From the NCBI GenBank assembly GCA_018657625.1, contig JABHWU010000113.1, positions 10,101 to 42,100 on the forward strand: DNA of 32,000 bases, given 5' to 3'. Of this stretch, positions 16,617 through 18,034 are shown in pieces. Made by a program: the position numbers and the translations under genes. This DNA is from Deltaproteobacteria bacterium (lineage in GTDB: Bacteria; SAR324; XYD2-FULL-50-16). Under the pieces are notes generated by a model. The model was not told the DNA's origin. It ran no database searches and saw only the letters and a list, made by a program, of their open reading frames with translations. Each line of letters opens with the position of its first letter. The first letter of the stretch is position 1.

Positions 16617-17747
16617 ATGTCTGATATACCAACTACTTTTATTCCCTTAAGTGATTTAACAGGAAGTAAGGACGAAGTAAGACCGGATTGGGTCATTGGT
16701 TCAGTCAGTTCTGGCATTGGTCCAATCCCGCAGATATCATGTGACTGGAATCAATCCGATAAAGTCGGTCAAATAAAAGCGCGAATCAATAACACTTTTC
16801 GGATGAAATATGCCATTCAAGCTGGATTATATGCCGTAGGAAATCCTGATGGGGATTCACCTGTTTTGCTTTCAGCCAACTATAAATTAAGCTTCGACAT
16901 TCTAAGGCGTGAATTAAAGACGCTAAATGTATGGATCATCGTTTTAGATACCAAAGGAATTAACGTCTGGTGTGCCGCTGGTAAAGGGACTTTCGGAACT
17001 GACGAAATCATCAGACAAATCAGTCATCTAAAACTTGAGCGAGTGGTAAAACATCGTAAAGTGATTTCACCGCAATTGGGAGCCCCTGGAATAAAAGCGC
17101 ATGTTGTCAAAAAAATGACGGGGTTTAACATTAAATATGGTCCTGTCTTGGCCAAAGATATTCAAAAATATCTTCAAGACGGTTTAAAGGCGACCAAGGA
17201 AATGCGTCGGATCTCATTTAAAATTATTGATCGAATGATTTTAACACCAATGGAAATTTCCCTGGTGCTTAAACAATCATGGAAATACGGTTTAGGTATA
17301 TTAATATTTTTTGGTATTATGCCGACCGGGATTCTTTTTAAAAATGCTTTTGTGGATGGGTTACCGTTTATTCTTTTACTTTTTGTAGCGATTTTAACGG
17401 GAGCTTTTATCACCCCTGCCCTGCTGCCCTGGATCCCTTTTCGGGCTTTTTTTAGGAAGGGTTTTTTAATAGGATTGTTACCTGTGATTCTGCTTCATTA
17501 TCTTTCTTATAAATATGGTGGCCTTTTCAATGATCCATTTTTGTTGGCATCAGCTTATTTGTTGGTTCCGACACTAAGTTCTTATCTGGCTTTTAACTTT
17601 ACCGGTTGTACAACTTATACCAATCCGGCCGGTGTTAACAAAGAATTGAAGTCGGCATTTATTGTTTATGCGATTACTATTATAGTCAGTATTATACTAC
17701 TGGTTATTTACAAATTACTTATTTGGGGAGTGCTATGGAATACTTGA
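16617..17747 (+). CDS. hgcA: Mercury methylation corrinoid protein HgcA
   Basis: 376 aa. It carries the diagnostic cap-helix motif GINVWCAAGKGTFGT (NVWCAAGK at nt 16962-16985, Cys119). The N-terminal half resembles a corrinoid-binding domain. The C-terminal roughly 170 aa are hydrophobic with about five TM segments. An HgcB-type ferredoxin follows immediately. Confidence 0.9.
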   Translation: MSDIPTTFIPLSDLTGSKDEVRPDWVIGSVSSGIGPIPQISCDWNQSDKVGQIKARINNTFRMKYAIQAGLYAVGNPDGDSPVLLSANYKLSFDILRRELKTLNVWIIVLDTKGINVWCAAGKGTFGTDEIIRQISHLKLERVVKHRKVISPQLGAPGIKAHVVKKMTGFNIKYGPVLAKDIQKYLQDGLKATKEMRRISFKIIDRMILTPMEISLVLKQSWKYGLGILIFFGIMPTGILFKNAFVDGLPFILLLFVAILTGAFITPALLPWIPFRAFFRKGFLIGLLPVILLHYLSYKYGGLFNDPFLLASAYLLVPTLSSYLAFNFTGCTTYTNPAGVNKELKSAFIVYAITIIVSIILLVIYKLLIWGVLWNT

Positions 17748-18034
17748 AAAATGTTGTGACATTGCAGTTTTCAGAAAGCAAATGTAATGGTTGTCAAAGA
17801 TGCATAGAAGTTTGTCCGCATGGTGTTTTTCAAATGGTAGGGAAAAAAGCAGCCATAACAGACAAAGACCTCTGTATGGAATGTGGATCCTGTCAAAATA
17901 ACTGTGAACAGGAAGCTATCCAGGTTGAATCTGGTGTTGGATGTGCTGAAGCCATTATTAGAGGTTTGTTAACTGGTAAAGAACCAAGCTGTGGTTGTGA
18001 TGGTGAGTCCGAAAGTAGTAGTAGCTGTTGTTAG
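17735..18034 (+). CDS. hgcB: Mercury methylation ferredoxin HgcB (2x[4Fe-4S])
   Basis: It has two CX2CX2CX3CP-type motifs (CNGCQRCIEVCP, CMECGSCQNNCE), an internal GVGCAEA Cys and a C-terminal ...SSSSCC pair. I prefer the ATG at 17735 (MEYLKNVVTL), preceded by GGGGAG and overlapping hgcA by 13 nt. The track start is the TTG at 17723. Confidence 0.9.
   Translation: MEYLKNVVTLQFSESKCNGCQRCIEVCPHGVFQMVGKKAAITDKDLCMECGSCQNNCEQEAIQVESGVGCAEAIIRGLLTGKEPSCGCDGESESSSSCC

Follow-up and report, generated by a model that had tools for sequence, protein, structure and literature searches.

An unfused hgcA–hgcB gene pair in a genome labelled Deltaproteobacteria bacterium

The two genes at positions 16617–18034 of a 32-kb stretch of contig JABHWU010000113.1 (assembly GCA_018657625.1; "the window" denotes the whole 32-kb stretch that was analyzed) are, as judged with high confidence from their sequences, a genuine, unfused, and apparently functional HgcA–HgcB pair. 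The pair is intact and selectively maintained, and it is an ordinary instance of the two-gene system already known for making methylmercury. Its gene integrity, its family membership, its predicted fold, the purifying selection acting on it, and the conservation of all the residues known to matter were established directly. It is a new and somewhat divergent addition to a well-described system, and the understanding of the mechanism is unchanged by it. A first-pass annotation of this DNA had proposed a complete hgcA–hgcB pair belonging to a described system and not a new one, and our results agree with it on both counts. The coordinates of all features are given in Table 1.

Family membership of the two proteins

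Family assignment was done with curated NCBIfam equivalog models for HgcA (NF040863, cutoff 275 bits), HgcB (NF040864, cutoff 99 bits), and the fused HgcAB_like proteins (NF043039, cutoff 285 bits), and with a model of the gamma (large) subunit of CFeSP (cutoff 306 bits). The profile check, which had been recommended in the first-pass annotation together with an alignment to the proteins of strain ND132, placed both proteins above the cutoffs of their own families. HgcA scored 385.9 bits (E 1.4e-115) over profile positions 1–323 of 325, and HgcB scored 119.5 bits (E 3.9e-35) over the full length of its model (1–93 of 93). The paralog models failed: HgcA reached 195.2 bits with the fusion model and 73.5 bits with the CFeSP gamma model, which covered residues 65–188 only, and HgcB reached 51 bits with the fusion model. 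These scores served as a proxy for phylogenetic placement relative to the paralogs.

The ND132 alignment gave the same assignment. The HgcAB of Pseudodesulfovibrio mercurii (Desulfovibrio desulfuricans) ND132 is a genetically and biochemically characterized mercury methylase. For the comparison we used the sequences given in Supplementary Data 2 of Cooper et al. (2020; PMC7305189), the numbering of which agrees with the published Cys93, Cys73, and Cys94/95. With BLASTP, HgcA was 36% identical to its ND132 counterpart over 318 residues (E 2e-72), an alignment that spanned both domains, and HgcB was 40% identical (E 3e-24), with the eight cluster cysteines aligned and Cys70 matched to Cys73. In both organisms the genes are adjacent and co-oriented, and in both HgcA combines a CFeSP-like corrinoid domain with five transmembrane helices.

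Several differences from ND132 were found. The window HgcA is 38 residues longer, with about 26 extra residues at the N-terminus and a three-residue read-through at the C-terminus, and it has Ser86 and Ser92 at the positions of the cofactor contacts Thr60 and Thr66. Its genes overlap by 13 nt, unlike those of ND132. The HgcB tail contains four cysteines versus two in ND132, and the second cluster motif has CMECGS and C-E here versus CMECGA and C-P there.

Table 1. Features of the hgcA–hgcB region and its upstream neighbors (window positions)
Feature	Position	Strand	Basis
hgcA, corrinoid protein of the pair, 376 aa	16617..17747	+	NF040863, ND132 alignment, homologs, dN/dS
Corrinoid-domain region of HgcA	16800..17174	+	Pfam CdhD, phmmer, Foldseek
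Cap-helix motif NVWCAAGK, residues 116–123; Cys119 predicted to ligate the corrinoid cobalt axially through its thiolate	16962..16985	+	Motif, alignments
HgcA transmembrane domain, five predicted helices (203–233, 241–268, 278–300, 307–329, 337–369)	17223..17723	+	AlphaFold2 (pLDDT mostly 85–97), computed hydropathy
Shine–Dalgarno-like element GGGGAG, located in the hgcA 3′ end and 4 nt ahead of the hgcB ATG	17725..17730	+	Sequence
hgcA/hgcB overlap, 13 nt	17735..17747	+	ATG 17735 as hgcB start, hgcA end
hgcB, dicluster ferredoxin of the pair, 99 aa	17735..18034	+	NF040864, ND132 alignment, dN/dS
First [4Fe-4S] motif CNGCQRCIEVCP, Cys17, 20, 23, 27 then Pro28	17783..17818	+	Fer4; ND132 Cys20/23/26/30
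Second [4Fe-4S] motif CMECGSCQNNC, Cys47, 50, 53, 57 then Glu58	17873..17905	+	ND132 Cys50/53/56/60
HgcB Cys70 in GVGCAEA, equivalent to the essential ND132 Cys73	17942..17944	+	Alignment, spacing
C-terminal Cys98–Cys99 pair	18026..18031	+	Homolog tails
AlaX-like tRNA-editing-domain protein, 104 nt 5′ of hgcA	15775..16512	+	Pfam tRNA-synt_2c, tRNA_SAD
Cobalamin riboswitch heading the divergent cluster	15382..15580	−	Rfam RF00174, 71 bits vs gathering score 31.5
Seven-gene cluster cbiK–ABC–ABC–btuF–cbiL	9411–15163	−	Gene-family matches

Conserved residues, predicted fold, and gene junction

The HgcA protein contains the stretch GINVWCAAGKGTFGT. To recognize the cap-helix motif we used N(V/I)WC(A/S)(A/G/S)GK and required its Cys to fall where ND132 has Cys93 and CFeSP has Thr374. 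The sequence found, NVWCAAGK, is identical to that of ND132 and is exactly one of the six motifs classed as "high-stringency" (PMC10087281). It lies in an ungapped block of the ND132 alignment (NYKL…DT(K/R)GINVWCAAGKG), in which Cys119, encoded by the TGT codon at 16971–16973, is matched to Cys93, and Val117 to Val91; further along, Ala179 is matched to Ala153. Among the homologs (119 full-length sequences, 120 sequences in the alignment), I-N-V-W-C-A-x-G-K was invariant, with NVWCAAGK in 119 and NVWCAGGK in one. The earlier reading of a cap-helix signature carrying the Cys predicted to ligate cobalt was therefore exact as to motif and Cys position.

The same annotation had held that this motif parts HgcA from its CFeSP relatives. 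Cys119 stands opposite Thr374 of CFeSP (2h9a sequence, counted from the printed alignment), and this Cys-for-Thr difference is what sets HgcA apart from CFeSP (PMC7305189). The kinship is nevertheless plain in the corrinoid domain. The only Pfam match of HgcA was CdhD (residues 67–182), phmmer aligned residues 62–186 with 2h9a_A (E 6.5e-8), and a sequence search of solved structures returned CFeSP large subunits only, with no HgcA match. With the CFeSP large subunit (AcsC/CdhE; 2h9a, 2ycl, 4c1n, 4djd), HgcA shares a corrinoid-binding Rossmann-like domain at 24% identity and a root-mean-square deviation (rmsd) of about 2.3 Å over about 125 residues, and in both families a protein-bound cobamide cycles between Co(I) and CH3-Co(III). 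In contrast to CFeSP, HgcA lacks the N-terminal [4Fe-4S] domain and the TIM barrel, has a membrane domain added, and is partnered by a ferredoxin and not by the small CFeSP subunit.

An AlphaFold2 model of HgcA, built without cofactor from the 120-sequence alignment, had a mean predicted local distance difference test score (pLDDT) of 88.6 and a predicted template modelling score of 0.81. It showed an alternating strand/helix corrinoid-binding domain at approximately residues 26–197, followed by five long helices. Five transmembrane helices are the published architecture of HgcA (PMC7305189). The predicted C-terminal domain matches it, with the helices drawn by AlphaFold2 and the ND132 alignment running through the domain; the hydrophobic C-terminal half noted in the first reading of the sequence thus corresponds to five confidently modelled helices. 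Residues 1–12 had pLDDT below 50, and the N-terminal extension is predicted to be partly disordered. The best fold match in the PDB, obtained with Foldseek, was the integrative model of ND132 HgcAB (9a0b_A, 323 columns, E 5.7e-20). The next matches were CFeSP large subunits (2ycl, 4c1n, and 2h9a), with rmsd 2.3–2.4 Å over about 125 columns.

HgcB has cysteines at positions 17/20/23/27, 47/50/53/57, 70, 86, 88, 98, and 99. Pfam recognized generic Fer4 domains only. Both ferredoxin cluster motifs announced by the first-pass annotation are in place, and their spacing is that of ND132, with a numbering offset of 3. The internal Cys it had picked out in GVGCAEA is Cys70; it follows Cys57 by 13 residues, and the same distance from the last cluster Cys was found in 125/125 homologs (all HgcB counts were drawn from the 125 closest HgcB sequences). 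In ND132 the corresponding C73A substitution abolishes methylation (PMC7305189). The C-terminal Cys–Cys, described there as typical of HgcB, was also found: 86 of the 125 homologs terminate in CC, and four cysteines follow the conserved Cys in 110, as they do in the window protein, in which Cys86 and Cys88 are the further cysteines of the tail. Full activity in ND132 needs at least one of Cys94 and Cys95 (PMC7305189).

The unfused organization is plain from the reading frames, since hgcA and hgcB are two open reading frames in different frames. The 13-nt overlap reported before holds when hgcB starts at ATG 17735. This start agrees with the N-termini of the homologs (MKYLKNVV…), and the resulting 99-aa protein is present in public collections. 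An in-frame TTG upstream, at 17723, was considered as the start and rejected; the protein collection has no 103-aa form of the kind it would give, and the ATG is the start used by the homologs. The GGGG of the GGGGAG element is kept in the relatives, and we infer that this element acts as a Shine–Dalgarno sequence for hgcB.

At the same junction the relatives read …TATGAAATAC…, with a 4-nt ATGA overlap, and the window reads …TATGGAATAC…. The 13-nt overlap is thus a derived state, which arose from the usual ATGA overlap when one A was replaced by G (TATGAAA to TATGGAA). The change turns the hgcA stop TGA into TGG and adds Trp-Asn-Thr (WNT) to the C-terminus of HgcA, and the same substitution turns Lys2 of HgcB into Glu.

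Both genes are under purifying selection. The ratio of nonsynonymous to synonymous substitution rates (dN/dS) of hgcA was 0.13 against L017 and 0.10 against L015, the two closest related loci, and that of hgcB was 0.08 and 0.04, respectively. These values are similar to those of the neighboring cbiK and alaX-like genes. HgcA is 88% identical to that of L017 and 68% to that of L015/L016, and a homolog of hgcB lies directly 3′ of hgcA in 11/11 related loci. In L018, tblastn placed an hgcB homolog of 63% identity straight after hgcA (9152–9403, plus strand), at a place with no stored gene call; L018 is an example of gene callers missing hgcB.

Proposed reaction and alternative readings

Cofactor binding, chemistry, expression, and the production of methylmercury by the host would follow from homology with the ND132 enzyme. 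HgcA would be a corrinoid protein anchored in the membrane by its five C-terminal helices, with the cobamide held in the N-terminal CFeSP-like domain and the thiolate of Cys119 as the lower axial ligand. HgcB, translated from the overlapping start, would be a ferredoxin with two [4Fe-4S] clusters, the low-potential electrons of which would take HgcA from cob(II) to cob(I). S-adenosylmethionine (SAM) would then methylate cob(I) to give a Cys-ligated methylcob(III)amide, and the methyl group would pass to Hg(II) to form CH3Hg+. Cys70 of HgcB and its flexible tail (Cys86, 88, 98, and 99) would deliver Hg(II) and remove CH3Hg+. The steps of this cycle are modelled by homology on the purified ND132 complex; in the characterized enzyme, SAM is the methyl donor and the cobalt has thiolate ligation (PMC11588087).

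A number of observations weigh against reading the pair as a working mercury methylase. HgcA has only 36% identity with its experimentally validated counterpart in ND132. Expression of HgcAB is very low even in known methylators, and gene presence does not predict rates (PMC11588087). The segment 111–127, which should form the cap helix, was drawn as coil in the cofactor-free AlphaFold2 model at a low-confidence pLDDT of 67–76, which does not confirm the helicity implied by the first-pass annotation or the geometry of the Cys at the cobalt. Inspection of the sequence and a promoter scan gave no convincing promoter or Shine–Dalgarno sequence 5′ of hgcA. No ArsR-type regulator adjoins the pair, unlike the situation in L001 and L019.

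The second cluster motif of HgcB is a further point of this kind. The high-stringency rule for hgcB in the consensus protocol is C(M/I)ECGA (PMC10087281), and the window protein, which reads CMECGS, fails it when strictly applied; the motif also ends in C-E, not C-P. The CMECGSC string that the first-pass annotation had singled out is therefore present without being canonical: CMECGAC occurred in 116/125 homologs, CIECGAC in 2/125, and CMECGSC in 7/125, all seven within or near the clade. The Ser variant is kept in L015 and L017, and L015 also has the four tail cysteines. The residue after the fourth Cys is variable (E in 51/125, P in 39/125). Because the cysteines are intact, CMECGS is a problem of the motif rule and not a functional objection.

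The alternative that survives best accepts an intact HgcAB and gives it a selected role other than Hg methylation, for example some other methyl transfer that depends on a corrinoid and SAM and is linked, in this clade, to the neighboring riboswitch-controlled genes for corrinoid supply, with methylation in situ incidental, negligible, or unexpressed. What HgcAB does natively is acknowledged to be unsettled, and known methylators express it at an extremely low level, about 0.0004% of their protein (PMC11588087). Purifying selection shows a benefit without saying which, and in this clade hgcAB lies beside a cluster of cbiK, ABC, btuF-like, and cbiL genes under a B12 riboswitch and an AlaX-like gene, not beside ArsR or metal genes. 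On the other hand, every organism with unfused hgcAB tested so far methylates Hg (PMC10087281), and the neighborhood link holds in close syntenic relatives only, is absent from distant loci, and may be plain shared ancestry. We regard this role as unlikely but worth serious consideration; it does not contradict the assignment of the pair to the HgcAB family.

A non-methylating HgcAB-like paralog, fused as in Pyrococcus, or a diverged and inactive copy is very improbable. The fused proteins (Pyrococcus furiosus Q8U2U9; NF043039), which did not methylate in tests, have the cap-helix, transmembrane, and ferredoxin modules in common with the window pair, and sizeable partial scores with the fusion model, the non-canonical CMECGS, and the ND132 identity of only 36–40% would fit such a paralog. 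However, hgcA and hgcB are separate genes here, HgcA fell 90 bits short of the fusion cutoff and cleared its own by 110 bits, and the best model was the true HgcA equivalog. The exact high-stringency cap-helix motif, the conservation of all functionally tested residues, and strongly purifying selection also speak against a paralog.

That the large gene encodes the gamma (large) subunit of the CFeSP of acetyl-CoA synthase, in the Wood–Ljungdahl pathway, and the small gene a generic ferredoxin has next to no probability: the names given to the identical proteins at NCBI and the CdhD and solved-structure matches invite this reading, which is effectively refuted by the low and partial score with the gamma model, by five membrane helices in place of the N-terminal Fe–S and TIM-barrel parts of the CFeSP subunit of about 445 aa, by Cys119 in place of Thr374, and by gene-family scans that found no acs/cdh genes in the 32-kb window.

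Neighborhood, relatives, and public record

Identical proteins are already public, under generic names, in a metagenome-assembled genome (MAG) labelled "Deltaproteobacteria bacterium" at NCBI. HgcA is there as "acetyl-CoA synthase subunit gamma" (MBT4289071.1 and MBT4527222.1) and HgcB as "4Fe-4S binding protein" (MBT4289070.1 and MBT4527223.1); JGI names HgcB "NAD-dependent dihydropyrimidine dehydrogenase PreA subunit." The names are generic because Pfam sees only the CdhD and Fer4 domains. They hide the hgcAB identity, and text-based surveys would therefore miss the pair; screens based on motifs only would drop the hgcB call, since the CMECGS of this clade fails C(M/I)ECGA.

Methylmercury is the form of mercury that bioaccumulates and acts as a neurotoxin. 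To our knowledge, no genetic marker other than hgcAB is known for its production by microbes. From its sequence, the pair described here likely adds one more uncultured low-G+C lineage to the methylators.

An identical HgcA is encoded by 20 contigs, which belong to a number of assemblies (ENA, JGI, NCBI, and Logan), and window positions 15001–21000 are 100% identical to contig JABIDG010000408.1 of GCA_018651875.1. Beyond its own small clade, no match to HgcA exceeded 58% identity. A scan of GTDB species representatives gave no close HgcA, the best being 51% identical, in a Chitinivibrionales MAG. Homologs of the marker protein MutY outside the clade were at most 51% identical and came from mixed phyla (Marinimicrobia, Calditrichaeota, and Desulfobacterales).

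Upstream of hgcA lies the AlaX-like gene, the product of which scored 100 bits with the AlaXM model (cutoff 300) and has HxxxH and CxxxH zinc motifs; outside the window, its adjacency to hgcA was confined to L015 and L017, which are close relatives. The divergent cluster encodes CbiK with a signal peptide, an ABC-2 ATPase and permease, a FecCD/BtuC-type permease, an ABC ATPase, a BtuF-like binding protein, and CbiL. Headed by a cobalamin riboswitch, it looks like a unit for corrinoid or cobalt uptake or salvage. At its tail, positions 8977–9276 (minus strand) hold a 99-aa open reading frame without a family match that was called in all relatives.

The gene order cbiL…cbiK (minus strand) followed by alaX-like–hgcA–hgcB (plus strand) is the same in L017 and L015/L016, and in these loci the synteny with the window extends far past hgcAB. 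A general association of hgcAB with the cbiK cluster and alaX was considered and rejected; the adjacency was found only in the close syntenic relatives, and not in L001–L007, L018, or L019. Because the loci that keep it are broadly syntenic and distant hgcAB loci have other neighbors, the corrinoid link between hgcAB and the cbiK cluster is suggestive only. It is quite doubtful that the hgcAB of this clade forms a conserved functional neighborhood with the riboswitch-led operon and the AlaX-like gene, with CMECGS as the mark of a distinct subtype. If the neighbors did supply or remodel the HgcA corrinoid, or shared B12 regulation with it, methylation capacity would be coupled to corrinoid availability, and CMECGS would mark a distinct subtype that strict motif surveys under-count.

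Two distant loci, both in Chitinivibrionales MAGs, have ArsR-type regulators. In L001, an ArsR/SmtB-type helix-turn-helix gene (9041–9415, plus strand) lies just 5′ of hgcA. In L019, an ArsR/SmtB-type gene (1703–2032, plus strand) heads a set of MtrA-like, DsbD_2, P-type ATPase, and UbiA genes.

Matches to promoters and terminators around the window pair were no commoner than in shuffled sequence, and we therefore claim no transcription unit. The G+C content is about 0.37 and uniform over the pair and its neighbors.

Downstream, hgcAB has been kept while the flanking ABC operon decayed. The 151-aa open reading frame at 18221–18676 (minus strand) corresponds to the surviving C-terminal part of an ABC ATPase of 264 aa. 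Compared with L017, a deletion of about 2.1 kb (18677–19472 region) took the Walker-A part of the ATPase, the permease, and the substrate-binding gene. The window also lacks another ABC operon, about 4 kb long, which in L017 lies between hgcB and the ATPase gene. L017 and L015/L016, unlike the window, have intact ABC-transporter operons 3′ of hgcB as well as the 4-nt ATGA overlap. The NCBI record has no gene called at the remnant region (18221–18676/18677–19472).

Elsewhere in the window, a 496-aa open reading frame at 27412–28902 (minus strand), with no match in NCBIfam or Pfam, overlaps the end of a gene for a 558-aa protein with an adenylate/guanylate cyclase domain (28869–30545). A 763-aa methyl-accepting chemotaxis protein with a HAMP domain and a C-terminal bacteriohemerythrin is encoded at 20565–22856 (plus strand), syntenic in L015 and L017, and by its domains is likely an O2- or redox-sensing chemoreceptor. 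A second methyl-accepting chemotaxis protein is encoded at 3345–4715 (minus strand). Positions 24908–25246 (minus strand) encode a 112-aa protein with a superoxide reductase domain of the neelaredoxin/desulfoferrodoxin type, which is consistent with an anaerobic or microaerotolerant host. Together with the hemerythrin-domain chemoreceptors, this neelaredoxin-type gene fits an oxygen-sensitive lifestyle.

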